From a virus (taxonomy: Duplodnaviria; Heunggongvirae; Uroviricota; Caudoviricetes), in IMG/VR virus record IMGVR_UViG_3300024273_002067: 64,000 bases of DNA, one strand, 5' to 3'. The translations under genes were made by a program, and so were the position numbers. Positions 14,116-63,209 of this stretch are shown here, piece by piece. Below the pieces are notes generated by a model. It saw nothing but the letters and a program-made list of their open reading frames with translations. It was not told where the DNA came from and searched no databases. Each line of letters starts with the position of its first letter. Position 1 is the first letter of the stretch.

Positions 14116-14364
14116 ATGAACCCTTTTGATACTGAAATAAAACATAAGGATGGAATCTCTTCTTTAAAAGTGCATGTTATGTACATAGACGGAGACTTTA
14201 AGATTTGTGATGGTTGTGATAAAAGAAAAGAACGTATTGCTGCCATAAGAATGATTTGTGGTGATGTTGCCTGCATTTGTCAAGATTGTATTATGGATTT
14301 GTCTAGAGCTTGGGATGAGCCAAGAACTTTATTGACAGAATTTATGGATATTTATGAGAAATAG
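14116..14364 (+). CDS. C4 zinc-ribbon protein resembling the ClpX N-terminal zinc-binding domain
   Basis: CDGCD-x12-ICGDVACICQDC; pattern Cx2C...I.G...IC..C. Confidence 0.35.
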   Translation: MNPFDTEIKHKDGISSLKVHVMYIDGDFKICDGCDKRKERIAAIRMICGDVACICQDCIMDLSRAWDEPRTLLTEFMDIYEK

Positions 14365-20637: not shown

Positions 20638-21069
20638 ATGAATACTATTATACTATTTTCAATATATATATTATTTATAATTATATCTGGTGCATCTGAG
20701 GCTGTGATGGATAAAATTCAATTTCATTATAACAAATCTATCTTTTTACAATTTAAAAAACAGCTATTCTGGGACCCTAGCATGTCTTGGAAGAACAAAT
20801 ATAAAAATGGAGACCCTAAGCAAGGTTGTAAATTCATTTTCTCCACTACATACTTTGTTTTTGCCACTGATGCATGGCACTTATTTAAATTCCTAAAAAA
20901 CACATTCATATTTGCGTCAATTGGAATAGCAATGTATGCACAAACTTGTGCTTTAAAGGATTTTGATTTATCTAAAATTTTAACTATATTGCTATTTGTA
21001 ATATTAGGAAGAGCCTTTTACGGCTTATCTTTTAATTTATGTTTTGATAAAATATTAAAATCAGATTGA
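20638..21069 (+). CDS. membrane protein
   Basis: Multi-TM ORF. Confidence 0.4.
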   Translation: MNTIILFSIYILFIIISGASEAVMDKIQFHYNKSIFLQFKKQLFWDPSMSWKNKYKNGDPKQGCKFIFSTTYFVFATDAWHLFKFLKNTFIFASIGIAMYAQTCALKDFDLSKILTILLFVILGRAFYGLSFNLCFDKILKSD

Positions 21070-21458
21070 AACTATTTGTTAGTAATAAAATTGAAGTTAG
21101 AGATTCCAGCCTATCAGGAAGGGGTGTTTTTGCCAATAAAGATATAAAGGCGGGGGAAATATTAGAAGAATGTCATCATGTTATTTTAGAAAACACATTT
21201 AAAACTCAAGACCCCATGTTACAAACGTACATTTTCTCTTGGCCTAAAGGCTCTCACGGAGGGAAAAACTCATCTTCTGTAGTTCTGGGTATGGGCTCTA
21301 TATTTAACCACAGTGATAATAATAATGCTGATTGGGTCACAGATGAAATTAGGAACTTGTATTCATTTTATGCAATAAAAGACATAAAAAAAGATGAAGA
21401 GATATTTACTAATTATGGCATAATGTACAAAGATGTTGTGGGTACTAATAACAAATAA
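21066..21458 (+). CDS. SET-domain protein (lysine methyltransferase fold), minimal 130 aa
   Basis: GRGVFA, IFNHS.NNNA, EEIFTNYG motifs. Confidence 0.7.
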   Translation: MKLFVSNKIEVRDSSLSGRGVFANKDIKAGEILEECHHVILENTFKTQDPMLQTYIFSWPKGSHGGKNSSSVVLGMGSIFNHSDNNNADWVTDEIRNLYSFYAIKDIKKDEEIFTNYGIMYKDVVGTNNK

Positions 21459-38074: not shown

Positions 38075-38968
38075 ATGATTTTAAATAAAAACAAACAAAA
38101 AGGATTAAAGAGACTTGTATTTATAAATGTTGCTTTTTTTCTTATAGCAAATGTTATAATGTCTGCTTCTGGTAGCTATGATTTAATGTCAGACTTTGCC
38201 TTAAGCTCTAGCTTTATGCATGTCATATTAAAGCCGTGGACTTTACTTACTAGCATGTTTTTACATATAGACTTTTTTCACTTACTCTTTAACATGTTAT
38301 ACCTATTTATATTTGGACAAATTTTATCCGAAAGATTAGGCAGCCAATCTGTAGTTACAGTATATCTTTTGGGTGGAATTGTTGGGGCAATATTTTATTT
38401 ATTATTTTATAACTTAATATCTATTGACCCCAGATATCTGGCCATGGGGGCTTCTGGTGGCGTTATGGCAGTTATGTCTGCTGCAACAACAATTAATCCA
38501 AATAAAGGAGTTTCAATAATGTTTTTGGGTAAAATAAAGATAAAATGGATTTTTATATTTTTATTTATTATGACCAGTGTATATAATATAAACATAAATA
38601 CTGGTGGCAAAATTGACCACATGGGAGGTGCTATGTTTGGCTTTATTTACATAACTCTAATAAAAAACAGAAACCTATACCTGGGGAAGTGGTTGGATAA
38701 TATTTGTGTTTATTTTTCAGATAAATTTTCAATAAATAAAACAACATTTAAAATTAAAAAAGATGAATCAAATATCAAAACTGGATTTAGGGGAGCTCAA
38801 GATAGGAGAGACAAAAAAACAAGAGAAGTGGCGGTTGATAATTTTTTAGAAAAAACAGAAATAAACGAAGAAATGGATAAGTTGCTTGCAAGGGTTAAAA
38901 AAGTTGGGTTTGATAACTTAAGCGAATCAGACAGGCAAAGACTAGTATATTTAAGTAAAAAAATGTAA
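38075..38968 (+). CDS. Rhomboid-family intramembrane serine protease
   Basis: GASGGVMAV (Ser) and DHMGGAMFG (His) in TM helices. Confidence 0.7.
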   Translation: MILNKNKQKGLKRLVFINVAFFLIANVIMSASGSYDLMSDFALSSSFMHVILKPWTLLTSMFLHIDFFHLLFNMLYLFIFGQILSERLGSQSVVTVYLLGGIVGAIFYLLFYNLISIDPRYLAMGASGGVMAVMSAATTINPNKGVSIMFLGKIKIKWIFIFLFIMTSVYNININTGGKIDHMGGAMFGFIYITLIKNRNLYLGKWLDNICVYFSDKFSINKTTFKIKKDESNIKTGFRGAQDRRDKKTREVAVDNFLEKTEINEEMDKLLARVKKVGFDNLSESDRQRLVYLSKKM

Positions 38969-38969
38969 T

Positions 38970-39284
38970 ATGAGCAATAAAGAGAGAATAGAAATTGAAC
39001 CTGGTTTTTTTGTTGGTGAAACTGTAATATTGTTAGAAGAGACTGAATTTACAAAAGTTCACAAGATAAAAATTGGCACTGTGGGCGTAGTATCAAAAGA
39101 CGATAACTTAGAAACGCTGAAGGGGTGGAAAGCTATAAATGTAGAAGAAGGCTTCAAGAGCGAAATAGATAAAATGACTCCAGAAAAAATAGATGAGCTA
39201 TATAATCATTTATCTAGGATTGGAAAGATTAAAAATGCTGACAAGCTAGATGATTTAGCAAAAATTAAAACAAATAAACAATAA
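38970..39284 (+). CDS. hypothetical protein
   Basis: ORF. Confidence 0.4.
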   Translation: MSNKERIEIEPGFFVGETVILLEETEFTKVHKIKIGTVGVVSKDDNLETLKGWKAINVEEGFKSEIDKMTPEKIDELYNHLSRIGKIKNADKLDDLAKIKTNKQ

Positions 39285-39847
39285 TGAAAGAAACACTGCC
39301 TTTGGCTAAATGTAGAACTCTGTTCTTTGGGAAAGACGTTGATATGGAATCTATAGAATCTATATCTGAAAATATTATAAAGATAAATGAAGATGATAGT
39401 TTTTTAGAAAAGCTTTATCCTGTATATGGATTGAAATATGAGCGTAAACCTATAAAAATAATGATTGACAGTTATGGCGGATACGTTTACCAGTGTATGG
39501 GATTGATAGGTATTATGGAAAGTTCAAAAACAGAAATACACACTTATGCCACTGGGGCTGCGATGTCTTGTGGTTTCATAATGTTAATATGTGGACATAA
39601 AAGATTTGCATACAAACACGCTACACCTATGTATCATCAAGTTTCGACTGGCTTCTGGGGTAAAACTCAAGATATGGAAGAGAGTTATAAGGAAACAAAA
39701 AGACTTCAGGGCAAATTTGAATCATTAACTTTAGAGAAAACAAAAATATCTAAATCAAAATTAAAAGAAATTTTAAAGACAAAACAGGATTGGTATATGG
39801 ATGCGGAAGAGGCTGTGTCCTTTGGTGTTGTGGATAAAATAATATAG
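39284..39847 (+). CDS. ClpP-family (S14) serine peptidase, short divergent paralogue
   Basis: GAAMSCG (Ser) and YHQVSTG (His) motifs. Confidence 0.65.
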   Translation: MKETLPLAKCRTLFFGKDVDMESIESISENIIKINEDDSFLEKLYPVYGLKYERKPIKIMIDSYGGYVYQCMGLIGIMESSKTEIHTYATGAAMSCGFIMLICGHKRFAYKHATPMYHQVSTGFWGKTQDMEESYKETKRLQGKFESLTLEKTKISKSKLKEILKTKQDWYMDAEEAVSFGVVDKII

Positions 39848-40152
39848 TGAAGTGGGTTTCACATAATAGATTGATTGTTGAAAAAACTTCTTCAAAAGAA
39901 ACTTTAAGTGAATGTCAAAATGATTTTTATAGTTTATATGAGGGTGTGTCACTATTCAATTATAAATTTAATACAGTTAACAGAGTGTTTCGTTATAACA
40001 AAATGTCTGATAAAGAAAAAAAAACTCTTTTGTCCTTGTTAGATAGTGCGACAACCACAGATGAAATTAAAAAAATAATAAAAATAAATAAACTCCAAAC
40101 AAACTTGCGGCATATAGACACCCAGGAGAGAGTACGACATTTAGATTTATGA
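39847..40152 (+). CDS. hypothetical protein
   Basis: ORF. Confidence 0.4.
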   Translation: MKWVSHNRLIVEKTSSKETLSECQNDFYSLYEGVSLFNYKFNTVNRVFRYNKMSDKEKKTLLSLLDSATTTDEIKKIIKINKLQTNLRHIDTQERVRHLDL

Positions 40153-40643
40153 TGGAAATTGAATGGCTATTAGTTAATTATAAACATGACAAGGATAATG
40201 ATAAAATGTATTCTGATTGTGTAGAAATAAAAGATAATAAAATTTTTAATGATTTAACATTTTCGCAATCAATTAGAGGTAATGTGAAAAATGTTGGATT
40301 TTTTAAATTTCGTATAACTAAAGGTTGTGATATAAGATATTATGCTAATTTCAGTAGAATAAAAAATCATTCAAGATTTAAAAACAAATTCTTATTAACA
40401 TTAACTGGTCAAATTGATGTTTTAAGCCCAAGCCACCATAATAGCAATCAGGCCAAAATTCAAGTCGCAGGCTCTTATGACAAAGCAAGAGATGCACTTC
40501 AGGCTGCGAATGACATTTCTAATGGCTTTATAAATTCATTAGTTAGTGGTGGAGATAATTTGGAATTTTGCAAAGAAAGCAAAAAATTATTAATAGAAAA
40601 AAAACATGAGCTTCGGTTCGTTGGGCGACCACAATTAAAATAA
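40149..40643 (+). CDS. hypothetical protein
   Basis: ORF. Confidence 0.4.
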   Translation: MMEIEWLLVNYKHDKDNDKMYSDCVEIKDNKIFNDLTFSQSIRGNVKNVGFFKFRITKGCDIRYYANFSRIKNHSRFKNKFLLTLTGQIDVLSPSHHNSNQAKIQVAGSYDKARDALQAANDISNGFINSLVSGGDNLEFCKESKKLLIEKKHELRFVGRPQLK

Positions 40644-40648
40644 AAATT

Positions 40649-41209
40649 ATGATTAAAGAAATAGTAAAATATGGTGATGATATACTTAGAATTGTTTGTG
40701 AGAAATACGCTTCTGGTGCTATTGACATCAATGAATTAATTTCAAACCTAAAAGACACACTTAACTCAGTTAAAAATGGAGCAGGATTAGCTTCTCCACA
40801 AATAGGCATTAATAATAGAGTTTTTGTAACCAGAAACTATAGAGACGACAAGCCAGATGAAATGCTTACATTCATAAATCCAGAAATAATAACAAAGTCT
40901 AAAGAACAAGTTAAGGTTCCTGATGGCTGCTTAAGCATACCCAATATACACTCTGAAACAGAAAGACATTCTTACATAACAGTATCTTACCTGGATGAGG
41001 GGCTAAATAGAGTGGAAGAAGAGTTAGAGGGATTTCAATCTGTTGTGTTTCAACATGAACTAGACCACTTAAATGGCGTTTTGTTTTTAGACTTGTTAAG
41101 TCAGGAAGAAAAAGAAAAGATTGAAGAGTTTATTTTGAGACAGAAAAGTGAGCCTAACATATTTTATATTGAAGGAAAAATAATTGAAATGAGTTTAAAA
41201 AATGGCTAA
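40649..41209 (+). CDS. def: Peptide deformylase
   Basis: GAGLASPQIG, GCLSIP, HELDHLNG motifs. Confidence 0.85.
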   Translation: MIKEIVKYGDDILRIVCEKYASGAIDINELISNLKDTLNSVKNGAGLASPQIGINNRVFVTRNYRDDKPDEMLTFINPEIITKSKEQVKVPDGCLSIPNIHSETERHSYITVSYLDEGLNRVEEELEGFQSVVFQHELDHLNGVLFLDLLSQEEKEKIEEFILRQKSEPNIFYIEGKIIEMSLKNG

Positions 41210-50063: not shown

Positions 50064-52889
50064 ATGCATAATAATAAAAAGCTTTATGAAGAAGTTTCAA
50101 GAATGATTGAACTATTAGGAGGAGAGCAAAAAGATTCAAAAACACTTAAAGAGTCTTTTGACAATAAAGTGATATCTAAAAGAAATTTAACAGAATCTAT
50201 AGATGACATAGACTTCACTAACTTATTTGATGATGACTTAAACGATGAGGAATTAGACAAAAAAATAGATAGCAAATTTTCGTCACTTTCAGCCAATGAT
50301 GACATTTCTTTACTGGGCAAGTTAGCTCTGGTTACGGGTTCAATTAACAAATTACAAGCTGCGATGTTTGATTTGCAAAAAAAGGATTTGTTGACTCTAA
50401 AAGACTTAAGTTCTGAAAGAATTAATAGAGATGACGATAAAGGTGCTGTAGTTCATAAAGGAAGAAAAATTTTATACCCTGGGCAATCTGTTGCAGATTT
50501 TAGAGACATGATGAACAAGGGAAGGCTTATGTTAAAGGTTGGAAATGAATCAGAAAATCTAGACGGAGACAATGTAGGCAAGGTATTTAAGTGGCTAGGA
50601 GGAACTCAAGGAACAAAAACTTTACATAATATTGGATTTGGAAGCGATGGTAAATTGAGTAAAAAAGGAAATGCTGAACTAAACTTTCTAGCAAGAATTC
50701 TTTCTAATCAGCCAAAAGATGATTCAGAACAGAAAATAATAGAAACATTTGGAGATGCTGCAAAAAATAATGCACTAAAAATATTACTTGACCTATATAA
50801 AGTTGCAGGTACAAACATTCTACTTCCACTCCTAAACATGGAGCCAACACCAGAAAATTTAGATTCTATTTCAGATGGAGTTACTAAGGCGTTGAATAAC
50901 TTAGCTGGCATTAGTGGAGATAAGCTAGAGGCTAAAGAAACTAGCTGGGACTCTTCGAGAAATGTTGGGTCTTGGATTTTACAAGTTGCAAAGAATTATG
51001 CTAAAAATGCAATTAAAAAAAATACTGAATACTTACCAAATATAAATTCTGCTAATCAATTTTTAGAAGATATGCTAAGTAGGGAGGGAGTCATTTCTTT
51101 TTTATCAAGAAAAGAACCTTCACATGACAACTATGCTGACTCAGTAGAAAAAGTGGGTGAGAAATATTTATACAAATATTCAAAAATTGATGATGCTATT
51201 GATGACTTAAGAAATTCAACTAAAGTTAAAAATCATCATTTAATGCCATATAATTTAGAAATATCTAAATACAAAGATTTATTTTCACTAGAAAGAAAGG
51301 CGCCTATATCAATGAGTCCTGAAATGGAAAAAGAAATAGGACAAAAAGTTGCTGATGAAGAAAGTTTACTAAACTTAGATAGTGGTGATGAAATGAAAAT
51401 AAGAAACATATTGTCTAAAGTTGTTGATTTTATGACTTTAGATTCTAAAAAATATGGAATCAAACAAGCTACTCACGACCCTAGTTATTTATCTATTTCT
51501 GACAAAAAGGAAATACAATCAGGTAGAGATGAGTCTTTAATTAGAAAGAGAAAAGAGCTAGCAAAAGAAAATGCTATAAACTTCATGTATAACTTTTTAT
51601 TGTCTGCAGTTGGTAACACTAAGTATGGTACAGATATAGGCATTTCTGGTAAGGTGAGTCCAGAAATTATGTCTGACTGGATAGAGTCTCAAAGAAAGAC
51701 AATGTTGACCAAGCTTATAAAAATAGAAAAAGCAAACAATCCCGATATAGATAGTGAGAAAATAAAGGAAAGAGCTGAAAAGCTAGGACTTTTAACTAAA
51801 GGAGGTAAATTTGCTCAATCATTTAAAGGTGGTTTAAAGGATTACTTTTCTAACAACAAAGAAGAATTGTCTAAAATAATGAAACTAGTTTCTTCAACAT
51901 CTCCTGAAGGATACGAGGTAGAGTCTGATATCGAAACTATATTCGAACAGAAAGTTAGGGCTAGAATTCAAGAAATAATTAGAGAGTCATTTGTCATAAA
52001 AGAAGAAGAGTACGAAGACAATAATTTAGAAGAAGATGAGTTAGATAAATTGATAAATGCATTTGGAGACAGGTTTTCTAAAGCAACATCTTACAATAGA
52101 GCTGGGAATGGTGGATTAGACAAAGAAATTAAAAGCATTGTAGATGGAAATCTATCAAAGTGGCACTTTGAAAATAGTGAACAAGGTCAACATAACTACA
52201 TCAGCTCAGTACTAGCTTCTATGTATAACACATTAAGCAGTTCACAACAAAGAAATGTCTTAAAACACATTTTTCTTTCTTTCTTCCCAAGAGGTGAGGA
52301 AAGTAGAATAGTTACACAACTAATAAACAAACAAGTACCAGGCTCTTTAATGAGCAATAGACCAGAAATGTGGGATGTTATTATATCTTCTGAAAATGAT
52401 GGAACTCTATTGTTACAAAAAGCCTTAGAAACATATGAGCCTAAAGGCTCATTATTTAAGTACTTATTGAGAAGAATTCTTAACGAAGCTAGAAATAAGT
52501 CCAGAAAAGAAGATGCCTCATTACATAAAGGTGAAAGGACTTATCACAGTACTTCTGTAGATTCTATTGACGCACCATTAGGAAGCGATGAAGACGGGAG
52601 TAGAGCATATGAACTAGAGGCAGAAGATTCTTCTGATGATAAAATAGGTGAATTAAGAGACAGAATTTCAAACTATCTATATAAAGCAGAAGATGCTGGA
52701 TTACTTTCTGGTAGTGAGTTAAATTTATTGAAATCAATCAGTCAATTTGGTTCCGAAGTAATGGATAACGATAAAATTAACTATGAACTATTGGGAACAA
52801 GAATAGGAAAAAGCGCTTCTAATGTTGGAACTATGATGTCCAACATAGTAAAGAAGATGAAGCAAGGTAGAGAAAAGGGAATTGTATAA
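50064..52889 (+). CDS. 941-aa protein with N-terminal LYEEVSRMIELLGG motif and C-terminal sigma-region-4-like HTH
   Basis: N-terminal motif shared with 36236 and 45573; C-terminal YELLGTRIGKSASNVGTMMSNIVKKMK. Confidence 0.45.
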   Translation: MHNNKKLYEEVSRMIELLGGEQKDSKTLKESFDNKVISKRNLTESIDDIDFTNLFDDDLNDEELDKKIDSKFSSLSANDDISLLGKLALVTGSINKLQAAMFDLQKKDLLTLKDLSSERINRDDDKGAVVHKGRKILYPGQSVADFRDMMNKGRLMLKVGNESENLDGDNVGKVFKWLGGTQGTKTLHNIGFGSDGKLSKKGNAELNFLARILSNQPKDDSEQKIIETFGDAAKNNALKILLDLYKVAGTNILLPLLNMEPTPENLDSISDGVTKALNNLAGISGDKLEAKETSWDSSRNVGSWILQVAKNYAKNAIKKNTEYLPNINSANQFLEDMLSREGVISFLSRKEPSHDNYADSVEKVGEKYLYKYSKIDDAIDDLRNSTKVKNHHLMPYNLEISKYKDLFSLERKAPISMSPEMEKEIGQKVADEESLLNLDSGDEMKIRNILSKVVDFMTLDSKKYGIKQATHDPSYLSISDKKEIQSGRDESLIRKRKELAKENAINFMYNFLLSAVGNTKYGTDIGISGKVSPEIMSDWIESQRKTMLTKLIKIEKANNPDIDSEKIKERAEKLGLLTKGGKFAQSFKGGLKDYFSNNKEELSKIMKLVSSTSPEGYEVESDIETIFEQKVRARIQEIIRESFVIKEEEYEDNNLEEDELDKLINAFGDRFSKATSYNRAGNGGLDKEIKSIVDGNLSKWHFENSEQGQHNYISSVLASMYNTLSSSQQRNVLKHIFLSFFPRGEESRIVTQLINKQVPGSLMSNRPEMWDVIISSENDGTLLLQKALETYEPKGSLFKYLLRRILNEARNKSRKEDASLHKGERTYHSTSVDSIDAPLGSDEDGSRAYELEAEDSSDDKIGELRDRISNYLYKAEDAGLLSGSELNLLKSISQFGSEVMDNDKINYELLGTRIGKSASNVGTMMSNIVKKMKQGREKGIV

Positions 52890-52894
52890 TTACT

Positions 52895-53770
52895 TTATTC
52901 AAAACCTATATTTCCAGAAGCATTATTAGAGTATGTAGATGATATAATATTGTCCCTCATCTCTTTTAACTCTTCTAGCTTTTCCAAATAATTGTAACCG
53001 TATAATTCTACTGATTCTATCAAATTTTTAATGTGGCCAATAGATAAGCCATTAGTTTCTTTTGATATTTTACCAACTTTACTTTTGCTAATTTTTATAT
53101 CTAATTTTTCACAAAAAGACTTTATATACTGCCCCCTCTCTAGTTCGTCTGGGTATTCTATGAAATACTTTTCCTCAAACATTCCTGGCTTATCTGTTAA
53201 AAATTCAGCTATCTTTGCCTCATAATTGGTTGTTGCAATAAAATATATCCCATCTTTATTATCATTAGACTTAAGAATGTTTTTTACAGCTGATATTCCG
53301 TACTTTTCTAAAGACACTCCAAACTCTTCCATGATAATTAACATATCAGCATCATTGTTGCTTTCCTTTATGAAAGATATAAAGCTACTTAAATCAGTTG
53401 GGTCTTCTACATAAACAACAATACCATCATATGATTCGGCCATTCTTCTACATAAATACTTTTTGCCACAACCTGGTTGACCGTGTATTAATATGGCCCT
53501 ATTATACTCAACTCCAGAAGACTTATATTTACTTTTTAAATTGATAAAACTATTAAAATCATCTTTAATATCTTGATAATAAGCATTTAATATTTCAACG
53601 GGATTATCATTTTTAAAGTGTAACTTTGACAAATGTGCCCCATGCTCTAATGAATAGTTTAGACTATATATACCCTTTGGTATTTCGCTATATACTGGTT
53701 TGGCTGGGTGGTAGTTTTCTCCATCTTCTGAAGTCCACACTCTTTTAGTTTTATTTTCTGACATAAACAT
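52895..53770 (-). CDS. AAA+ ATPase
   Basis: Walker A GQPGCGKK, Walker B LIIMEEF, sensor-1 ATTN. Confidence 0.7.
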   Translation of the reverse strand: MFMSENKTKRVWTSEDGENYHPAKPVYSEIPKGIYSLNYSLEHGAHLSKLHFKNDNPVEILNAYYQDIKDDFNSFINLKSKYKSSGVEYNRAILIHGQPGCGKKYLCRRMAESYDGIVVYVEDPTDLSSFISFIKESNNDADMLIIMEEFGVSLEKYGISAVKNILKSNDNKDGIYFIATTNYEAKIAEFLTDKPGMFEEKYFIEYPDELERGQYIKSFCEKLDIKISKSKVGKISKETNGLSIGHIKNLIESVELYGYNYLEKLEELKEMRDNIISSTYSNNASGNIGFE

Positions 53771-55203: not shown

Positions 55204-56178
55204 TTATTCTATAATAATTTTTTTACTATAAAGTATATTTTTTGAAGTAGCCACAACCAAGTAGGTGCCTGCAGATAAGTGGTCAGTTTTATCAATGGCA
55301 ATCAAATGCTCTCTACAATCTATAACTTCTATTTTAGAGTAAACTTCATTTCCTCTTACATCTCTAAGAACAACTAAAATTTCTTGTCTACCTATACAAT
55401 TAACATCCTTAAATAGAATATTAATACAATCACCTCTCTTTAATGGAGTTGGGTATATGTCCATTACACCATCTCCATTGGGAGCATGTTCAACAGGAAT
55501 AATATTAAACGTCTCTTGCTCACCATTAAAATCTACCTGCGTAAGCCTATAGTAAGACAATCCTCTTAGTGGGTTACTGTCAATTTCAAAGTAGTTAATT
55601 ATATTGACACTGTTGCCTGCTCCTTTTGTTTCAATTGTAATTTTCCAATCTATTGCATCTTGACTTTTCTCTACAATGAAGTAATCGTTATTAATCTCAG
55701 AAGCAGTTGACCATGATATCTCAACAATGTTTTCATTTACAACAGCATTAAATTCTATTAATTTAATGGGTAAAAATCCGCCATTACTTACAGTGGCTGG
55801 GCCTGTTAGAGGTGGGTCGTTCCCGCTCCACCAAGTATTAGAGCCAATATTTAATCTAGAACCTGAGTTGCCCCCAGTTAGTGTCCCTCCAGCATATACC
55901 TGAACTACACCATCACTATCTAAATTTATTTTTCTTCCATTACTAAATAACATCGTTCCATAAACCTCAATCCTCATGTTAACATAGGTAGGACTATTTA
56001 AATCAATTACAACAGACATTGAAGCGGGTATTCGCATTGTATCTCCTGTATTTGCAGGTACATAACCACAATCCCACGAAGCAGCACTACTCCAGTCACC
56101 ACCATCGTCAATTAAAGTACATATAGCAGAACTAGTAAGTGTAAGTGATAATAAAAATAGTAATAGTAAGTTTTTCAT
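55204..56178 (-). CDS. Secreted protein with a T9SS C-terminal sorting domain (start re-called to MKNLLLL)
   Basis: Signal peptide; C-terminal LSYYRLTQVDFNGEQETF motif. Confidence 0.55.
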   Translation of the reverse strand: MKNLLLLFLLSLTLTSSAICTLIDDGGDWSSAASWDCGYVPANTGDTMRIPASMSVVIDLNSPTYVNMRIEVYGTMLFSNGRKINLDSDGVVQVYAGGTLTGGNSGSRLNIGSNTWWSGNDPPLTGPATVSNGGFLPIKLIEFNAVVNENIVEISWSTASEINNDYFIVEKSQDAIDWKITIETKGAGNSVNIINYFEIDSNPLRGLSYYRLTQVDFNGEQETFNIIPVEHAPNGDGVMDIYPTPLKRGDCINILFKDVNCIGRQEILVVLRDVRGNEVYSKIEVIDCREHLIAIDKTDHLSAGTYLVVATSKNILYSKKIIIE

Positions 56179-56236
56179 ATGTTTATGTTTTGTTATAAAT
56201 GTAAATATTTCCAAACTTCATAAGTAATTATACTAA

Positions 56237-56422
56237 TTAATCTTCATCATTTAGATTTTGTATATATTTAGCCTTATCAATTTCCGACCTTCTTTTTACT
56301 GATTTTTTTACAAACTCTTTTCTCTCTCTAATATCATTAAGCATCTTAGTTTTGAAAACTTTATTTTTTAAATTTTTCAAAGCCTGATTTATATTTCCTT
56401 TAGCGACTTTTATTTTAAGCAT
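56237..56422 (-). CDS. rpsU: Ribosomal protein bS21
   Basis: MLKIKV...ALKN.K.K....ML.DIRERKEFVKKSVKRR aligns with bacterial S21, closest to the Bacteroidetes type. Confidence 0.8.
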   Translation of the reverse strand: MLKIKVAKGNINQALKNLKNKVFKTKMLNDIRERKEFVKKSVKRRSEIDKAKYIQNLNDED

Positions 56423-56435: not shown

Positions 56436-57395
56436 TTATTTCTTAGACGTTGACCACCAATCTTTACTTTTATTATCAACAACAACTTTCGCCATCTCAT
56501 CAACACCTTTCTCATCAACTTTTAACATATCTACAGTTAAGTATTTAGACATTATCGAGCAAGCTTCAGAGTAGTTAGTTTTTGCCTTTCTTACATTTTC
56601 AGAAAGTTCTGTTATGTCTAAAAAGTTACATAGAGTTAAAAACATCTTTATATTATCATCTGTATAACTTGAATCTATACCACTTCTAAATTCAGCATAA
56701 GTAGGAAGTGCTTCACCTAAAACTACAGTACCGTCTTTGTATAAAGATTTTAATAAAGACTCAAATATGGCCTTATCTTCTTCAAGTTTTTTTTTCTTTT
56801 CATCAACAATTACTTGATAATCTTCTTTGTTAGATATATTTTTATCAACACTTTCTTGACCAGAATCCTCATCAGGCCCTTCGACAGAGTCGTTATCACT
56901 ATTAACCAATTCACCATCAGTGCCTTCTTCTACTTCTTTTTGATATTTCACAAAGAAATGTAATGAAGTTAAAGATATTACTGGTAACAAGCCGCCCTCT
57001 AAAAATGCTAAATACCTTTTCATACTAGGTATGTCCGTAATGTCCGAGCCGAGCATTTCCCATATTGGACCAGTTAATTCAATCCAAGAAACGAATAGCT
57101 CACCATTTGGGTCTATCTCTTTATATGAGTAAAATATATTACCTAACATTTGAATGAATGTTACAATTCCAAACATAAACCATACACCACCCTTAACTCT
57201 ATTTGTAGCAGCAACTAAAGCAGTTATTGCGGCAATTTCTATTGCAATAGATAAATATACAGCCCAACTAAATGGATTGGCCATGTCATACCAAGTAACA
57301 ACGTGAGAAATGGATATTCCTGCCACCAATAAAATTGGAACAAGAAACATAGCTCTATTCGGATTTTCTTTTACCCACTTAAATAAACTTATCAT
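56436..57395 (-). CDS. membrane protein with an acidic cytoplasmic domain
   Basis: 4-5 TM segments followed by a D/E-rich segment. Confidence 0.4.
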   Translation of the reverse strand: MISLFKWVKENPNRAMFLVPILLVAGISISHVVTWYDMANPFSWAVYLSIAIEIAAITALVAATNRVKGGVWFMFGIVTFIQMLGNIFYSYKEIDPNGELFVSWIELTGPIWEMLGSDITDIPSMKRYLAFLEGGLLPVISLTSLHFFVKYQKEVEEGTDGELVNSDNDSVEGPDEDSGQESVDKNISNKEDYQVIVDEKKKKLEEDKAIFESLLKSLYKDGTVVLGEALPTYAEFRSGIDSSYTDDNIKMFLTLCNFLDITELSENVRKAKTNYSEACSIMSKYLTVDMLKVDEKGVDEMAKVVVDNKSKDWWSTSKK

Positions 57396-57721
57396 TTTTG
57401 CAAGTCTTTAATGTTGTTTTTTACTAATGAATGTAATTCCATCAATTGAGAACCTCTGTCCTTAGATGAAATCCAGTTATCGTATTCAAGATGAATGTTT
57501 ATTTTTTCAACCCTTATAACTTCTGGTATACTATCTATTTTTTGACTTAAACTATTTATTTTTTGACTTAAACTATCTACTACAAAAGTTTGTTGTTCAC
57601 TTATCTTTTGTTGCTTATTAATATCTCCAGACTTTGAACAAGATTTGAAGAAGAAAAACACAAGGGCTACAGATAAAATGTAAATTTTATACTTTTTTAA
57701 AAAATCTTTTACTTTTTTCAT
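57392..57721 (-). CDS. membrane-anchored small protein
   Basis: N-terminal TM segment; short tandem repeat SLSQKI(N/D)S. Confidence 0.4.
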   Translation of the reverse strand: MKKVKDFLKKYKIYILSVALVFFFFKSCSKSGDINKQQKISEQQTFVVDSLSQKINSLSQKIDSIPEVIRVEKINIHLEYDNWISSKDRGSQLMELHSLVKNNIKDLQK

Positions 57722-57806: not shown

Positions 57807-58922
57807 TCACTTAATAAAGTGCTCTCTAAATGACCTGTAAATCCCAGGAACGCCTTCTTGTTTGTTGCCTTTAATATTGTCTAAACTACTTCTAATTGAC
57901 TCGTCAACTTCGTATGATTTAGGTATTTCAATATTAATATACACAAACATGTCACCCACCACTTCTCTGCCATATACTGGTAGTCCTTTGCCAGATATTC
58001 TAAACACTTTACCCACATGTGAATTGGGGGGAATATTTATTTTTATATTACCGTAAGGGGTGTCTATTTCTAAATTTGGATTTCCGAATATAGCATCAAC
58101 AAGACTTATAGTTTTGTCTAAAACAATATCGTCACCTTCTATCAAGAACTTATCATGCTCTTTTTCAAACACATCAATCAATAAATCTCCACTATGACCG
58201 CCCTTAATAAAATCGCCTTTCCCCTTAATTGCAAAAGGCATATTAGACCTAGAGCCTTTAGGTATGTTTATATCAACTTCTTCTTGCTCATTGAAGTTGG
58301 AGCCCAAACCACCACAAGGCACACATCTTTCTTTTATTATAGTTCCTCCACCTTGACAATGATTACAATCTACCTCCTGCCTTATAACTCCCAACGGTGT
58401 AACTTGTTGCATAACAACACGACCTCTACCAGCGCAACTATTACAGGTCACATGACTATTGCCACCCTTTGAGCCTAAGCCATTACAACTTTTACATTTA
58501 GACTTTCTTTTTATAACAACTTTTTTATGAATTCCATTAACTATTTCTTCTACTGTTATGCCCAATTTAATCCTCAAGTTCCTTCCCTTTGATTTTTTAG
58601 GTGCACTATATGAATTTCTTGAACCACCAAAGAATTCTCCAAACAAATCATCCATAGATGGGTTACCGCCAAAACCACGATTATACTGTTGCCCATTATT
58701 TGCACCCATATGACCATGGGCATCATATTTTGACCTCTTATCACCATTACCTAATACGTCATAAGACTCTGAAATTTCTTTAAATTTTTCCTCAGCCTGT
58801 TTGTCGCCATGATTTTTGTCTGGGTGGTATTTTATAGCAAGCTTTCTATAAGATTTTTTAATCTCTACAGAAGTAGAAGACTTTGTTACTCCCAAAATTT
58901 TATAATAATCTAATTGTGACAT
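57807..58922 (-). CDS. dnaJ: Molecular chaperone DnaJ (full-length type I)
   Basis: J-domain HPD, G/F-rich region, four CxxCxGxG zinc repeats, C-terminal domains. Confidence 0.9.
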   Translation of the reverse strand: MSQLDYYKILGVTKSSTSVEIKKSYRKLAIKYHPDKNHGDKQAEEKFKEISESYDVLGNGDKRSKYDAHGHMGANNGQQYNRGFGGNPSMDDLFGEFFGGSRNSYSAPKKSKGRNLRIKLGITVEEIVNGIHKKVVIKRKSKCKSCNGLGSKGGNSHVTCNSCAGRGRVVMQQVTPLGVIRQEVDCNHCQGGGTIIKERCVPCGGLGSNFNEQEEVDINIPKGSRSNMPFAIKGKGDFIKGGHSGDLLIDVFEKEHDKFLIEGDDIVLDKTISLVDAIFGNPNLEIDTPYGNIKINIPPNSHVGKVFRISGKGLPVYGREVVGDMFVYINIEIPKSYEVDESIRSSLDNIKGNKQEGVPGIYRSFREHFIK

Positions 58923-58962
58923 TTAATAAATGTAGCACATAAATAAAAAAAATAAATAGATA

Positions 58963-59406
58963 TTAAGAGTTTCTTACCATTATAAACCTTGCTCTTGTTT
59001 TGTGTTTATCATTTGAATAAAAAAGGCTTTCAATTCTAAATGATGATTCTAAAATCTTACTAGAGTCAAAGTGACACAACGTAACCAAATCTGTACCATG
59101 CACCTCTGAAGATGTCCAGCAAGGTGGTAAAAAATTTAAAAAAGGATATTTATTATGTATAGAATTTCTATCAAGCCTCCATTGGCCAAAACCATATTCT
59201 ATCTCACATTCGTCACGAATTAATTTTAAAATATAATAACATTCATATTCAGTTGGAAGCCTCCACCCTTGTCCATATTTAGCACAATATACCTTAGCAT
59301 CTTGCCATCCCAAATTTAATTTATTTTCAGGAATTTTAATAGACAGATTATTGATATACAATCCATTTTCCAGTATTAAATGACGATTAAAATTATTGTT
59401 GTACAT
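58963..59406 (-). CDS. hypothetical protein with GWRLPT motif (DUF1566/FGE-like fragment?)
   Basis: Motif only. Confidence 0.3.
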   Translation of the reverse strand: MYNNNFNRHLILENGLYINNLSIKIPENKLNLGWQDAKVYCAKYGQGWRLPTEYECYYILKLIRDECEIEYGFGQWRLDRNSIHNKYPFLNFLPPCWTSSEVHGTDLVTLCHFDSSKILESSFRIESLFYSNDKHKTRARFIMVRNS

Positions 59407-59408
59407 AT

Positions 59409-59434
59409 AAAAAAGGCCTCGATTTCCCGAGGCC
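59409..59434 (-). terminator. Minus-strand rho-independent terminator (GGCCTCG-loop-CGAGGCC plus T-run on the minus strand)
   Basis: 7-bp GC-rich stem just downstream of the clpP stop. Confidence 0.55.
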
Positions 59435-59454
59435 TATATTGGTTATATTTAACT

Positions 59455-60207
59455 TTATTTCTTAGTTTTAGAAGAACCTTTCTTTGTTGGAGGCTCCAAA
59501 CCAACCACATGGTCAATAACACCATATTCTAAAGCTTCAACTGCTGTCATCCAATAATCTCTATCACAATCTGCATGTATAGTATCAAATTTTTGACCAG
59601 TGTGATGAGCTATAATGTCATACAATTCTTTCTTAAGCAAATTAATCTGAGTAGCAGTTATTTCAATGTCTGAAGCTTGTGATTGGCCAATACCACCCAA
59701 AGGCTGGTGTTGCATTGAGCGTGAGTGCTTTAGAGCATATCTTTTCCCCTTCTCTCCTGCAGTGAGCAAAACAAAAGCCATAGAAGCACACAACCCCATA
59801 TTATAAGTTCCCACACTTGGTTTTACAGCTTGCATAGTGTCATATATTCCAAGGCCAGCATATACAGAGCCACCAGGGCTATTAATGTACATTTTCACAT
59901 CTTTTTTAGCATCTACGGACTCAAGATATAAAAGTTGAGCGTTAATAACATTTGCAACTTGGTCTGTAACTGGCATTCCCATGTATATGATTCTATCCAT
60001 CATCAATCTAGAGAAAACATCCATAGCAACAGCATTCATCTGTCTTTCTTCAATAATGTTTGGCGTCATTCCTACTGGACTCGTTTCCAAAATAGAAACT
60101 GGATTGATTACGCTTCTCATTTGAAAGTTTTCATAATCGTGAAGAGTTAAACTAGATACTCCATGGTCTCTAGCAAACAGTCTAAAATCTTTCTTTATAT
60201 TATTCAT
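59455..60207 (-). CDS. clpP: ATP-dependent Clp protease proteolytic subunit ClpP (start re-called to MNNIKK)
   Basis: Ser GLCASMA and His MQHQPLGG motifs; the track ORF overlaps the upstream gene stop by 95 nt, and the ATG at 60207 lies 1 nt after its stop. Confidence 0.85.
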   Translation of the reverse strand: MNNIKKDFRLFARDHGVSSLTLHDYENFQMRSVINPVSILETSPVGMTPNIIEERQMNAVAMDVFSRLMMDRIIYMGMPVTDQVANVINAQLLYLESVDAKKDVKMYINSPGGSVYAGLGIYDTMQAVKPSVGTYNMGLCASMAFVLLTAGEKGKRYALKHSRSMQHQPLGGIGQSQASDIEITATQINLLKKELYDIIAHHTGQKFDTIHADCDRDYWMTAVEALEYGVIDHVVGLEPPTKKGSSKTKK

Positions 60208-60208
60208 A

Positions 60209-62293
60209 TTATTTTTTATTTTTTTTTGTGACAACTTTTTTAGCAACTTTTTTAACAACGACCTCATCAGATTTAGAGATGTAGTCAACAGACAATTTAT
60301 CACCCATTTTTATTTCACCTCTCAATACGGCTTGTGATGCTGGGTTTTGTATGTACTTAGTCACAGCTCTTATCACGGGTCTTGCACCAAATTCCTCACT
60401 GTAGCTCTCTTTTAATAAGAACTCTTTCATTCTTTTAGTTACAGTAAGTTCGTACTCTCCATTCTCATACATTCTTTTTGTTAAAGAATTTACGTGTATA
60501 TCTACAATTTTAGAAATGTCTTCTTCCTTTAAAGTATTAAAGACAACTTTCTCATCAATTCTATTGATAAATTCTGGCCTGAACACTTTCTTTAGAGACT
60601 TTGCAATAACATCATTAACATTCATGTCATCAGTTGTACCAGAATCAAAGCCAACAGGAGTTACATCTAGCTCTTTAACTCCAATGTTAGAAGTCATTAT
60701 TATGATAGTATTTTTGAAGTTAATTTCTCTACCTAAACTATCAGTCAACATTCCTTCATCTAGTATTTGCAACAAAACATTACTAACATCTCTATGAGCC
60801 TTTTCTATTTCATCAAAAAGAATAACGCTATAAGGATTGTTTTTGACAGCGTCTGCCAACTGACCACCTTCGTCATGACCAACATACCCAGGAGGTGAAC
60901 CTATCATTCTAGAAACCGAATGAGGCTCCATATATTCTGACATATCTAACCTAATTAAAGACTCATCATTACCAAACATATATTCAGCCAAAGCTTTAGT
61001 TAATTCAGTTTTACCTACACCAGTTCTTCCCAAAAACAAAAATGATGCAATAGGTCTATTTGGATTGTGAAATCCTGCTGCAGAGCGTTGAACAGCTTCA
61101 GACACTTTCTGTACAGCCTCATCTTGGCCAATTACTCTAGCTTTAATTTCTTCAGGCATTTTTATCAACCTCAAACCTTCATCATCAGTAAGCTTTTTAA
61201 CGGGTATACCAGTCATTCTAGCGACAACTCTAGCTATCTCTTCAAGTAAAACATCAACTTTATTTTCTTTACTATCCCTGTCCCAGCTAAACTTATCCAA
61301 TTCTAATTGCTTCTCCATCTTTCTAATGGCATCTCTTGATTCCGCTGCCATTTCAAACTCTTGCTTTTTAATGTGTGAAGACTTAAGTTCTACTTGAGAC
61401 TCTATATCTCTTTCTAGTTTAAGAATTTCTTCAGGAACATTTATATTGTCTATGTGAACTCTAGAGCCAACTTCGTCCATGATGTCTATTGCCTTATCGG
61501 GAAACTGCCTTTCTGTAATATACCTTTCAGCATATGTTATACAAGCATCTATAGCCTCTTCATTAAAAGAAACGTTGTGAAAGTTTTCATAGTGTTGCTT
61601 TATATTCATAAGAATTTCCTTAGTCTCCTCAGTAGTTGGAGGAGCAACCTTGACCTTTTGAAACCTTCTTTCTAAAGCCCCATCTTTTTCAATAGTCTTC
61701 TTGTACTCATCTATAGTGGTTGCCCCAATACACTGAATAGCACCCCTAGATAGAGCTGGCTTAATCATGTTTGCAACATCTAATGAACCTTGAGCATTAC
61801 CAGTCCCTATTATAGTATGTATTTCGTCAATAAAAACAATTACATCTTGATTCTCTTCTAACTCCTCTATTATGGCCTTCATTCTTTCTTCAAATTGACC
61901 TCTATACTTTGTGCCAGCAACAATAGATGACATCTCTAGTTCAACTATTCTTTTATCATGCAAAATTCTGCTAACTTCTTTATTTACAATTTTCATTGCT
62001 ATACCCTCAGCTATCGCCGTCTTACCAACTCCTGGGTCTCCTATTAATACAGGATTATTCTTTTTTCTTCGACTCAATATTTGTATTAATCTATCAATCT
62101 CTTCCTCCCTTCCTATAACAGGGTCTAGCTGATTATTCATGGCTAATAGCGTTATATCTTTACCAAAAGAATCTAGCGCTGGTGTCTTTGATTCCTTTCC
62201 ATCTTTTCTTTTAATTCTCTTTCCATCATTAGGCTCTTTCCTTCCACCCAATGATTCAAATTCACTTTCATCTGAAGACATATTGATATTCAT
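60209..62293 (-). CDS. Clp/Hsp100 double-AAA+ unfoldase (ClpC/ClpA-like, no N-domain)
   Basis: Two Walker A motifs (GDPGVGKTA and GRTGVGKTE), Clp signature regions, arginine fingers. Confidence 0.85.
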   Translation of the reverse strand: MNINMSSDESEFESLGGRKEPNDGKRIKRKDGKESKTPALDSFGKDITLLAMNNQLDPVIGREEEIDRLIQILSRRKKNNPVLIGDPGVGKTAIAEGIAMKIVNKEVSRILHDKRIVELEMSSIVAGTKYRGQFEERMKAIIEELEENQDVIVFIDEIHTIIGTGNAQGSLDVANMIKPALSRGAIQCIGATTIDEYKKTIEKDGALERRFQKVKVAPPTTEETKEILMNIKQHYENFHNVSFNEEAIDACITYAERYITERQFPDKAIDIMDEVGSRVHIDNINVPEEILKLERDIESQVELKSSHIKKQEFEMAAESRDAIRKMEKQLELDKFSWDRDSKENKVDVLLEEIARVVARMTGIPVKKLTDDEGLRLIKMPEEIKARVIGQDEAVQKVSEAVQRSAAGFHNPNRPIASFLFLGRTGVGKTELTKALAEYMFGNDESLIRLDMSEYMEPHSVSRMIGSPPGYVGHDEGGQLADAVKNNPYSVILFDEIEKAHRDVSNVLLQILDEGMLTDSLGREINFKNTIIIMTSNIGVKELDVTPVGFDSGTTDDMNVNDVIAKSLKKVFRPEFINRIDEKVVFNTLKEEDISKIVDIHVNSLTKRMYENGEYELTVTKRMKEFLLKESYSEEFGARPVIRAVTKYIQNPASQAVLRGEIKMGDKLSVDYISKSDEVVVKKVAKKVVTKKNKK

Positions 62294-62379: not shown

Positions 62380-62709
62380 TTAATTTTTTAATGCAATAAT
62401 CCATTCTTTTATTCTTTCATTATCTACTGGGAACTTTAGGGCAAACTCATCTTTAGAGCTAAATCCCACAAAGCCAGAAGCTTTGAATTTAAAACCTAGT
62501 ATGTTAGAGTAGTTTGCAACTATTTCTGTTCCTTCTTTATTTATAAAATCTACCTCAAATGTTCTTGGATTTTTTAAGTCACCCGTTATGTGGTATATAG
62601 ATTTTATTAATTTTGAATCACCTCTAAATTTTCTAAATATATATTTAGAATCATATTTAGTCAAATAAATTCTACCAAGCTCATCTTTTATTTCAATTGG
62701 GCTATTCAT
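62380..62709 (-). CDS. hypothetical protein
   Basis: ORF. Confidence 0.4.
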   Translation of the reverse strand: MNSPIEIKDELGRIYLTKYDSKYIFRKFRGDSKLIKSIYHITGDLKNPRTFEVDFINKEGTEIVANYSNILGFKFKASGFVGFSSKDEFALKFPVDNERIKEWIIALKN

Positions 62710-62774: not shown

Positions 62775-63209
62775 ATGAAAAAAAAAATTGGTGCAGGAAT
62801 ATTTGCGATTGACAAAAATAGTGGAAAAATATTATTATGCCAAAGAGGTTTAGACACCTCTTTCTCTGAAATGTGGGCTGTATTTGGAGGTACCTTTGAA
62901 GAAAAGGACGGGACACCAAAACAAACTGCAAAAAGAGAATTTTTTGAAGAGACTGGATGTGTTGTTGATTATAAAATATCTAGAGAGCCTTTTTTTTTGA
63001 ATTCCAATAGATTTATAGACTTTTATACATATTTAGGAGTATTTGACGGGCAGCCAGAAATAAGAATAAATGAAGAGAGTCTTAGCTATGGGTGGTTTCA
63101 CATAGACAATTTGCCAACAAACATAATACCTGGTATGGGAGAAATGCTTGATGACAAAATGCCTGAAATTAAACGATTAATAAATACTATGTCTAACTCT
63201 AATTATTGA
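62775..63209 (+). CDS. Nudix hydrolase
   Basis: Nudix box GGTFEE...REFFEETG. Confidence 0.75.
   Translation: MKKKIGAGIFAIDKNSGKILLCQRGLDTSFSEMWAVFGGTFEEKDGTPKQTAKREFFEETGCVVDYKISREPFFLNSNRFIDFYTYLGVFDGQPEIRINEESLSYGWFHIDNLPTNIIPGMGEMLDDKMPEIKRLINTMSNSNY

Follow-up and report, generated by a model that had tools for sequence, protein, structure and literature searches.

A ClpC–ClpP–DnaJ gene block in a putative large phage of Bacteroidota

Introduction

Why would a virus carry genes for a protein unfoldase, a peptidase and a J-protein side by side? The question is raised by a 64,000-nucleotide stretch of DNA from the IMG/VR record IMGVR_UViG_3300024273_002067 (Caudoviricetes), here called the window, in which genes for a Clp/Hsp100 ATPase (clpC), a ClpP peptidase (clpP, product ClpP1) and a DnaJ (dnaJ) follow one another on the minus strand. 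An earlier prediction, made from the sequence alone and referred to below as the original prediction, had described them as a complete Clp proteolytic machine with a full-length DnaJ. We find all three genes intact and complete where that prediction had placed them, with matches much too strong to be due to chance, and we find the same arrangement in a group of related large contigs. On balance, we consider it probable, though by no means assured, that the genes provide a phage-owned, adaptor-free ClpCP protease together with an Hsp70-recruiting J-protein, as a conserved proteostasis module of a large-phage lineage.

Results

The unfoldase is a ClpC without N domain

The ATPase matches the Pfam families AAA, AAA_lid_9, AAA_2 (E 1e-67) and ClpB_D2-small, as well as phrog_4871, annotated as "ATP-dependent protease" (E 7e-244). 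Its residues 30-676 align without interruption to residues 153-801 of Staphylococcus aureus ClpC (E 1e-212), and the alignment to Bacillus subtilis ClpC is likewise continuous from residue 153 on, while alignments to ClpA and ClpB are split into two separate stretches. The N domain that belongs to a typical ClpC is missing, as the Pfam scan gave no match to PF02861 (the Clp_N double repeat). The unbroken alignment and the lack of Clp_N together identify the protein as a ClpC without N domain and not as a ClpA-type ATPase. The original label, "ClpC/ClpA-type double-AAA+", was therefore right about the two rings and the position of the gene, but not about the ClpA alternative, and the N domain is absent.

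The other marks of the ClpC subfamily are present, namely two AAA+ modules, a short M-domain with its aromatic residue, and a docking loop for ClpP (Table 1). The M-domain region is gap-free relative to residues 400-470 of S. aureus ClpC. Conservation was assessed in 96 N-domain-less and 91 full-length homologues. The Walker motifs of AAA1 are invariant throughout, the position that corresponds to S. aureus F436 is aromatic (F or Y) in 187 of 187 proteins, and both Walker A/B pairs and the (I/V/L)GF loop are kept in all 96 N-domain-less homologues, with each pore-loop motif retained in all but one or two of them.

The close relatives of the phage ClpC (72-97% identity) are all 679-706 amino acids (aa) long, whereas cellular ClpC has 838-878 aa. 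Where the N domain would be, the phage protein has a charged tail, with an acidic patch (SSDESEFES) followed by a basic patch (GKRIKRKDGKESK). The charge pattern is kept down to about 72% identity, and the tail could be a docking or regulatory element. The ClpP-docking loop is shortened on both sides in the whole clade, which has (T/S/K)PVGF where cellular Bacteroidota proteins have DFGxGVGF. A neighbour-joining tree of ClpC, computed without support values, suggests two large N-domain-less clades and does not settle the number of N-domain losses.

clpC and clpP form a probable transcription unit

ClpP1 matches PF00574 almost from end to end (E 3e-69, profile positions 5-179 of 182) and has the sequence marks of MEROPS family S14: a full-length fold with a Ser-His-Asp triad, the axial loop segment, and the pocket for the unfoldase, which is present but substituted. 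The description as a canonical ClpP with intact Ser and His motifs holds, with Ser142, His167 and Asp217 as the aligned triad. The predicted operon-like start one nucleotide (nt) past the ATPase stop can be read directly at the junction, where the TAA stop of clpC (60211..60209) is followed by a single T and then by ATG at 60207. Two alternative clpP starts are on record, a longer open reading frame (ORF) with GTG start and a public gene call of 270 aa. As the N-termini of more than 30 homologues, cellular ones included, align with ATG 60207, we prefer this start over the longer GTG ORF. In relatives, the spacing between clpC and clpP is similarly tight (3 to 112 nt).

A hairpin resembling an intrinsic terminator lies directly 3' of clpP and abuts the start of a 147-aa ORF. 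It had been announced as closing the clpC-clpP unit at 59409-59434, and it does so at a marginally different position (Table 1). Because of the 1-nt spacing and the shared terminator, we conclude that clpC and clpP are a tight, terminator-closed unit that is presumably co-transcribed. Promoter motifs are at chance level, both for sigma-70-like sites (47 found, 42 expected) and for the Bacteroidota -7 motif TAnnTTTG (110 found, 111 expected).

ClpP1 is 62-66% identical to ClpP of Flavobacteriaceae (Mesonia, Robiginitalea, Zunongwangia, Zhouia) and more distant from ClpP of Lak phages and of phages with 634-642 kb genomes (47-58%). With the Flavobacteriaceae proteins it shares an identical N-terminal loop segment (TPNIIEERQMNAVAMDVFSRLMMDRII) and an extension of the form KEFxKFA...GINS. 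The possibility that this 46-aa N-terminal extension is a phage-specific propeptide or targeting signal was rejected, since cellular Flavobacteriaceae ClpP carry it as well. Only about 10-13 linker residues and the basic C-terminal tail are additions peculiar to the phage protein.

A complete DnaJ follows a variable slot

The third gene encodes a class A DnaJ with all its parts, that is a J domain with HPD motif, a G/F region, four zinc motifs and the client-binding domains. Its residues 4-336 align end to end with the full-length DnaJ of PDB entry 6jzb. DnaJ proteins are 47-97% identical within the phage lineage, against 38-45% identity to DnaJ of cellular Bacteroidota, and by this comparison DnaJ appears more diverged from the cellular forms than ClpP1.

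That dnaJ is a full type I gene on the same strand as clpP had been predicted correctly. The interval between the two, given as 530 nt, measures 532 nt and is not empty, since it holds the 147-aa ORF. A relative has it at 70% identity, with conservation by codon position in the order second > first > third; we therefore regard it as a real gene. In relatives, the slot (20..714 in the relative L115) contains a 107-aa Lcl_C gene, a GIY-YIG remnant or nothing, which makes it a variable insertion site. Paralogues of Lcl_C are also present at other places in these genomes.

The gene block is conserved on large contigs

The block methyltransferase (MTase)–NUDIX–orf109–ClpC–ClpP–DnaJ–orf109–orf319–bS21, in which bS21 stands for the ribosomal protein, occurs on about ten distinct contigs, which come from metagenomes or IMG/VR, measure 26 to 518 kb and are referred to by L numbers. 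The full order, MTase–NUDIX–orf109–ClpC–ClpP–(variable slot)–DnaJ–orf109–orf319–(bS21)–x–AAA–(~950-1030 aa)–PcfJ, is kept in L005/L085 (83 kb), L086 (232 kb), L113 (298 kb), L115 (460 kb), L199 and L200. A shorter core (ClpC–ClpP–DnaJ–small gene–~300-346 aa) is found in L116 and L117, at 58-64% ClpC identity, and the order is looser in L007 (518 kb). The four longest of these contigs are IMGVR_UViG_3300028416_000004 (232 kb), CACVKB010000002.1 of GCA_902731705.1 (298 kb), k141_3754609 of ERZ27250555 (460 kb) and IMGVR_UViG_3300014205_000170 (518 kb). ClpP identity drops to 39-43% in L007 and L117, with ClpC holding at 55-58%. Identical copies of the clp region are present in four short-read assemblies, where the block runs on into an NMNAT-like gene, NAMPT, a nuclease and a UvrD helicase.

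The genes downstream of dnaJ belong to this block. orf109 and orf319 always follow dnaJ, and at 58% ClpC identity relatives of orf319 and small genes of similar size are still there; orf319 is also found in L118, which lacks ClpP. A single-sequence AlphaFold2 model of the orf319 product was unusable (mean predicted local distance difference test score, pLDDT, 43). The gene for bS21 is co-directional with dnaJ and lies four genes downstream of it. Further along, the gene of the 941-aa type sits beside the AAA-like and PcfJ-like genes in L113, L115, L199 and L200. The 941-aa protein of the window itself has no match in Pfam, PHROGs or phage records. The AAA+ ATPase that had been predicted here is a weak call, with a PF00004 match just above the cutoff, but its gene is syntenic in relatives.

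In the protein database, a tight ClpC lineage (74-97% identity) is found on contigs of up to 240, 298 and 460 kb. Below it there is a step to 64% identity, and then a range of 53-61% in which full-length Bacteroidota ClpC and other N-domain-less proteins are mixed. At least 598 IMG/VR stretches encode a ClpC-like relative, and among the best 80 of these, about 63 proteins are N-domain-less (roughly 670-700 aa) and 16 are full length. The combination was thus less unusual than the original prediction had held: about ten contigs share the block, PHROGs already contains the ATPase family (phrog_4871) and a full-length DnaJ family (phrog_14336), and similar gene sets appear in the literature (see Discussion).

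The genes are of host ancestry and under strong purifying selection

For cellular relatives, we searched a set of 185,579 bacterial and archaeal species, each represented by a single genome, and examined the best 80 ClpC matches. They come from Bacteroidota (mostly Flavobacteriales), with two from neighbouring phyla, and are full-length proteins (median 849 aa) of 53-57% identity. None of the 80 loci has a ClpP gene within 6 kb, and only one has a J-domain match. As the best cellular matches are full length, moderately similar and never accompanied by ClpP, we conclude that the module was assembled in the phage lineage from host-derived parts. All three genes come from hosts, but it was in phages that they were brought together, and the block was not taken over as a ready-made operon.

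Between the window and L005, the amino-acid identity of ClpC (96%) and ClpP (94%) exceeds that of the flanking genes (71-83%). A recent horizontal replacement was considered as the cause and rejected, since the identity at third codon positions (0.68 for ClpC, 0.64 for ClpP) is like that of the flanks (0.55-0.74). It follows that the high protein identity reflects strong purifying selection, which acts far more strongly on ClpC and ClpP than on the genes beside them.

The docking surface is remodelled in the closest relatives

The E. coli ClpP positions that we take to line the docking pocket (23, 60, 62, 82, 90, 92, 112, 114 and 189) read LQYFITSLL in 47 sequences, including seven named Flavobacteriaceae ClpPs. 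The corresponding residues of ClpP1 and its close lineage read LKYAYMYLV or near variants. Relative to Flavobacteriaceae ClpP, the changes in the sub-lineage of the window are Q60K, F82A, I90Y, T92M and L189V. When comparison groups were defined without the pocket columns, 6 of the 25 fixed differences between the 13 closest ClpP sequences and Flavobacteriaceae ClpP fell within the nine pocket positions (Fisher p 2e-4). We regard the remodelled docking surface as a lead towards a possible partial orthogonality from the host Clp system, not as a result.

The window behaves as part of a large phage

No capsid, portal, terminase or tail gene was detected in the 64-kb window. This absence counts against a phage, so that the case for a viral origin is built on relatives and gene content. 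The window also has no tRNA or rRNA gene, no Rfam match and no cellular core operon. Among its enzymes are a thymidylate synthase, a thymidine kinase, an acyl-CoA dehydrogenase, a GMP-reductase-like protein, a peptide deformylase and lysin-like enzymes, and further genes encode a topoisomerase, a PcfJ-like protein, a single-stranded DNA-binding protein, a C5 methylase, a NADAR protein, a rhomboid protease and an intein-bearing protein. Several ORFs match phage-only families without assigned function, and a 706-aa ORF (phrog_33734) has tblastn matches in the jumbo phages XacN1, Xoo-sp13 and SCTP-2. At the nucleotide level, megablast against phages returned no match, and an exact 50-mer was not present in JGI metagenome contigs. 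ClpP and ClpC similar to those of the window are present in Lak phages and in the 634-642 kb phages, and syntenic relatives lie on contigs of 232, 298, 460 and 518 kb, of which three are IMG/VR entries and about 20 kb each was read. There is good support for the view that the element behaves as a large phage and not as a bacterial chromosome, although the window by itself does not prove it.

The hosts are presumably Flavobacteriia-like Bacteroidota. Two proteins of the window, a subtilase and a G8-domain protein, carry C-terminal sorting domains for type IX secretion, which is a Bacteroidota trait, suggesting that phage proteins are exported by way of the type IX secretion system of the host.

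Table 1. Positions of the block, its motifs, the neighbouring genes and other features in the window
Feature	Position	Strand	Remarks
ClpC-type double-AAA+ unfoldase, no Clp_N	60209..62293	-	694 aa; Pfam, PHROG, alignment to ClpC
ClpC charged N-terminal tail, residues 1-35	62189..62293	-	about 35 aa in place of the N domain
AAA1 Walker A GDPGVGKT	62018..62041	-	motif scan
AAA1 pore loop KYRG	61898..61909	-	motif scan
AAA1 Walker B VIVFIDEIH	61817..61843	-	motif scan
M-domain (UVR-like) motif QEFEMAAESRD	61331..61363	-	alignment; F313 corresponds to F436 of S. aureus ClpC
AAA2 Walker A GRTGVGKT	61007..61030	-	motif scan
AAA2 pore loop GYVG	60878..60889	-	motif scan
AAA2 Walker B VILFDEIE	60803..60826	-	motif scan
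ClpP-docking loop PVGFD	60644..60658	-	PVGF is residues 546-549; (I/L/V)GF type
ClpP1	59455..60207	-	250 aa; Flavobacteriia-type N-terminal extension, extra linker, basic C-terminal tail
ClpP1 Ser142 motif	59773..59796	-	alignment to catalytic triad
ClpP1 His167 motif	59701..59715	-	alignment to catalytic triad
ClpP1 Asp217 motif	59548..59565	-	alignment to catalytic triad
Intrinsic-terminator-like hairpin	59414..59435	-	AGGCCTCGGGAAATCGAGGCCT + TTTTTT; 9 pairs, 6 G-C
147-aa ORF, clpP-dnaJ slot	58963..59406	-	Lcl_C/DUF1566-like match below Pfam cutoff
Type I DnaJ	57807..58922	-	371 aa; Pfam J domain, CXXCXGXG and C-terminal domains, all above cutoff
DnaJ HPD, residues 33-35	58818..58826	-	motif scan
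DnaJ G/F region	58623..58676	-	motif scan
Four CXXCXGXG motifs of DnaJ	58302..58496	-	motif scan
orf109 after dnaJ	57392..57721	-	N-terminal hydrophobic/lipoprotein-like segment; no Pfam match; syntenic in L005, L086, L113, L115, L199, L200
orf319, predicted membrane protein	56436..57395	-	N-terminal helices, acidic linker; syntenic to 58% ClpC identity
Ribosomal protein bS21	56237..56422	-	61 aa; PF01165 E 3e-11; syntenic in L005, L113, L199, L200
orf109 directly upstream of clpC	62380..62709	-	conserved 109-aa gene
NUDIX hydrolase	62775..63209	+	divergent from clp block; NAD-salvage neighbourhood
AAA-type ATPase, weak	52895..53770	-	291 aa; PF00004 22.5 bits, cutoff 21.2; synteny with the module
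941-aa ORF	50064..52889	+	position kept (934-1034 aa) in L113, L115, L199, L200
ClpP2	39284..39847	+	187 aa; PF00574 E 2e-27; triad intact; 14-aa insertion
Rhomboid protease	38075..38968	+	PF01694
Peptide deformylase	40649..41209	+	PF01327 E 4e-45
Subtilase with type IX secretion C-terminal sorting domain	18475..20091	+	Pfam
G8-domain protein with type IX secretion C-terminal sorting domain	55204..56214	-	Pfam
Thymidylate synthase	4571..5638	+	355 aa; profile of 266 positions
616-aa protein with LAGLIDADG or homing-endonuclease-type intein	31577..33427	+	Pfam/PHROG

Discussion

Our data suggest a model in which hexamers of the N-domain-less ClpC would dock by their PVGF loops on ClpP tetradecamers, unfold proteins and feed them into the proteolytic chamber. 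As the N domain holds the ClpC proteins studied so far in their resting state and ties their activity to adaptors and phospho-arginine, the phage ClpC would be expected to bind ClpP without a host adaptor. Substrates might be chosen by the ClpC pore, the charged N-terminal tail or a phage factor, and F313, the aromatic residue of the M-domain, may still permit regulation. The type I DnaJ would recruit an Hsp70, either host DnaK or a phage DnaK encoded elsewhere, for the folding or hand-over of clients. Together with bS21, peptide deformylase, the second ClpP-like peptidase of the window (ClpP2) and the rhomboid protease, the module could give the phage control over protein production and turnover. 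Complex formation, adaptor independence and activity, as well as substrates and timing, are what we infer from the genes and their conservation. The degradation or remodelling of host or phage proteins, as put forward in the original prediction, is a plausible role of such a module.

Support for adaptor independence comes from S. aureus ClpC, which after removal of the N domain forms planar hexamers, binds ClpP without adaptor and has raised ATPase activity (PMC12583610). When F436 is kept, the truncated protein engages in head-to-head M-domain contacts that lead to ClpC/ClpP rods, in which proteolysis is blocked, and the combination of N-domain deletion and F436A is highly active, degrades ssrA-tagged green fluorescent protein and is more toxic (PMC12583610).

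Several observations weigh against a self-sufficient phage protease. The phage ClpC keeps the aromatic equivalent of F436, and its S. aureus counterpart forms the blocking rods. ClpP lies within 8 kb in only 3 of the best 80 IMG/VR loci for ClpC-like proteins, and L118 has ClpC and DnaJ and no ClpP, so that the ATPase can evidently work without an adjacent phage ClpP. ClpP1 is so similar to ClpP of the host that phage and host proteins may also pair with each other. DnaK and GrpE were not found among the window ORFs that were scanned (about 25 smaller ORFs were outside the Pfam scan). As to the docking surface, only positions 60 and 92 stay fixed when wider ClpP groups are compared (p 0.15-0.18), and the short PVGF loop is joined with other ClpP pockets in L199, L200 and L116. 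Strict co-variation of ClpC loop and ClpP pocket was therefore rejected, as these three contigs break it and the enrichment is confined to the closest 13 sequences.

These points lead to an alternative in which there is no self-contained machine: ClpC would act on host ClpP, ClpP1 would serve under host ClpX or ClpC, and DnaJ would work with host DnaK, so that the adjacency of the genes would reflect co-regulation, and host proteostasis would be boosted or redirected. The similarity of ClpP1 to Flavobacteriaceae ClpP, down to the same N-terminal loop segment, is in line with this view, and so are the 77 of 80 IMG/VR loci without nearby ClpP, the state of L118, and the swapping of ClpP within the module that is apparent from L007 and L117. 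It accounts less well for the 1-nt spacing with a shared terminator, for the equally strong purifying selection on ClpC and ClpP, for a docking loop and a pocket that are both remodelled relative to the cellular forms, and for the conservation of the pair across about ten distinct contigs. We consider this alternative possible, if rather doubtful. A more far-reaching version of the phage-owned protease, which we offer just as tentatively, holds that the pair is naturally deregulated and partly orthogonal, as ClpC has shed the N domain and shortened its loop and as ClpP has rebuilt the pocket in the sub-lineage of the window. The two would then assemble with each other in preference to host Clp partners and degrade proteins without adaptors, be it for takeover of the cell or against host defence proteins, with DnaJ delivering or protecting clients.

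Two further explanations concern the virion and the nature of the window. ClpP1 might be a head-maturation protease, with the ATPase and DnaJ as assembly chaperones for a very large capsid, considering that its top PHROG matches are families of that name (phrog_94, E 4e-39), that ClpP and ClpX of phage G were detected by virion proteomics (PMC12484599), and that assembly roles for ClpA and ClpX have been proposed in a review of jumbo phages (PMC7824862). We think this unlikely, because ClpP1 matches housekeeping ClpP from end to end, covers only positions 66-255 of the 622 in phrog_94 and hence has no scaffold part, and is surrounded by NAD-salvage, methylase and bS21 genes, with no portal, scaffold or capsid gene in the window or in the loci of relatives, which were retrieved with flanks of 6-10 kb. 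It is also conceivable that the window is not viral at all, and that it stems from a Bacteroidota chromosome, megaplasmid or conjugative element with cellular stress genes. The missing virion genes, the PcfJ-like protein and topoisomerase, and the Bacteroidota ancestry of all three proteins would fit. This is very improbable in our opinion, since no ClpC in the 185,579 species genomes exceeds 57% identity and cellular matches are always full length, whereas relatives of 74-97% identity reside on contigs from IMG/VR or metagenomes, beside the phage-like neighbours that are seen in the window. The lack of tRNA and rRNA genes, Rfam matches and core operons, the many proteins from phage-only families (including those of jumbo phages), and the homing endonucleases and inteins argue in the same direction.

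Parts of the block have been seen before. Clp protease and chaperones are known from bS21-encoding phages of freshwater Bacteroidetes (Chen et al. 2022, PMC9723584), and it is very likely that this set is the same arrangement as the block of the window. Among the 900 published bS21 phages, two pVOGs for ATP-dependent Clp protease occur at most ten genes from bS21 in 50 and 47 genomes. That study reports the presence of the Clp genes without analysis. In its 47 genomes, bS21 is encoded on the reverse strand and surrounded by genes for terminase, portal, protease and capsid (PMC9723584), whereas in the window it is co-directional with clpC, clpP and dnaJ and has no virion genes nearby. The moraphages (Perez-Hernandez et al. 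2025, PMC12619734) are likewise large aquatic phages with predicted Bacteroidota hosts. They have a ClpA-like core VOG in 24 genomes and frequently DnaJ, in some cases DnaK, from Flavobacteriales (PMC12619734). The likeness is one of shared traits only. The moraphage paper does not describe ClpP or the gene block, and its genomes reach 307 kb compared to 460-518 kb for relatives of the window. ClpP, ClpA, ClpX and DnaJ were listed as sporadic genes of jumbo phages by Iyer and colleagues (PMC7824862). Phage G resembles the window in having unfoldase and ClpP genes side by side, with both products in virions (PMC12484599), but it has a single-ring ClpX and a Firmicute host, whereas the window has a double-ring ClpC-type ATPase and a full type I DnaJ in the block.

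The J-proteins of jumbo phages have been proposed to recruit host Hsp70. Rki of phage RB43 is a small J-domain-only protein, whereas the DnaJ of the window is a complete class A protein with zinc fingers and client-binding domains. As cited in the moraphage paper, Rki is a phage-encoded J protein that acts via host DnaK (PMC12619734).

Among cellular systems, the ClpC-ClpP pairs of Firmicutes and Actinobacteria (S. aureus, B. subtilis, ClpC1 of Mycobacterium tuberculosis) have two AAA+ rings, pore loops, a short M-domain with aromatic residue and a (V/I)GF loop in common with the phage ATPase. Their N domain, which stabilises the resting state, is the part to which MecA, McsB and phospho-arginine bind (PMC12583610); the phage ClpC is naturally without it, has a shortened docking loop, and is encoded by a phage-borne gene beside clpP and dnaJ. 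The closest cellular relatives, and likely donors, are Bacteroidota ClpC and Flavobacteriaceae ClpP. Cellular Bacteroidota ClpC has Clp_N and 838-878 aa and is unlinked to clpP; the phage protein has neither Clp_N nor that length.

Our literature search found no functional study of phage-encoded ClpP, ClpC or DnaJ, and a phrase search returned the moraphage paper (PMC12619734) alone. Four points go beyond the literature that we found: the N domain of ClpC has been lost systematically, the ClpC–ClpP–DnaJ(–bS21) block was put together in phages, it is under strong selection, and its docking surface is remodelled. Large phages increasingly appear to bring their own parts for translation and protein quality control, and the block unites an unfoldase, a peptidase, a J-protein and bS21. 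The phage ClpC is a natural version of the N-domain-less ClpC mutant of recent biochemistry. Should ClpC and ClpP1 prove to be an active and selective pair, they would illustrate the rewiring of regulated proteolysis by a virus and offer a compact adaptor-free ClpCP for study. If the block only supplements host proteostasis, it would be one more auxiliary gene set of big phages.

Other genes of the window

The window holds a second, divergent ClpP-like peptidase, as the original prediction had noted. ClpP2 is a genuine member of the family by its PF00574 match and intact triad, and lacks the N-terminal axial-loop region. It belongs to a second proteostasis cluster (38075..41209, plus strand) that consists of the rhomboid protease, a 104-aa ORF, ClpP2, two small ORFs and the peptide deformylase. 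A zinc ribbon protein at 14116..14364 had been likened to the zinc-binding domain of ClpX. It has no Pfam or PHROG match even at E<=10, and the ClpX reading is unsupported, as the CxxC...CxxC likeness is by eye only. The possibility that the 616-aa protein is a terminase was rejected too, because its matches to terminase PHROGs fall where homing-endonuclease families match, which points to an intein. The length of the thymidylate synthase relative to its profile indicates an insertion of about 90 aa.

A NADAR-domain protein is encoded at 12404..12892 (plus strand; PF08719 E 6e-52), and genes for NMNAT-like proteins and NAMPT (or NAPRTase, NAD synthase, isochorismatase and Macro proteins) are found just outside the window or in relatives. 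With the NUDIX hydrolase, these genes indicate that a large NAD/ADP-ribose module adjoins the clp block. A SET-domain protein (21066..21458, plus strand; PF00856 E 2e-17) and a DOT1-like methyltransferase (17380..17946, plus strand; PF08123 E 1e-11) represent families of protein-lysine methyltransferases that are better known from eukaryotes and giant viruses. Two more genes on the plus strand are unusual auxiliary genes for a phage, one for an SPFH/Band 7 protein (3748..4566), from a family tied to the regulation of membrane proteases, and one for a full acyl-CoA dehydrogenase (9490..11157).

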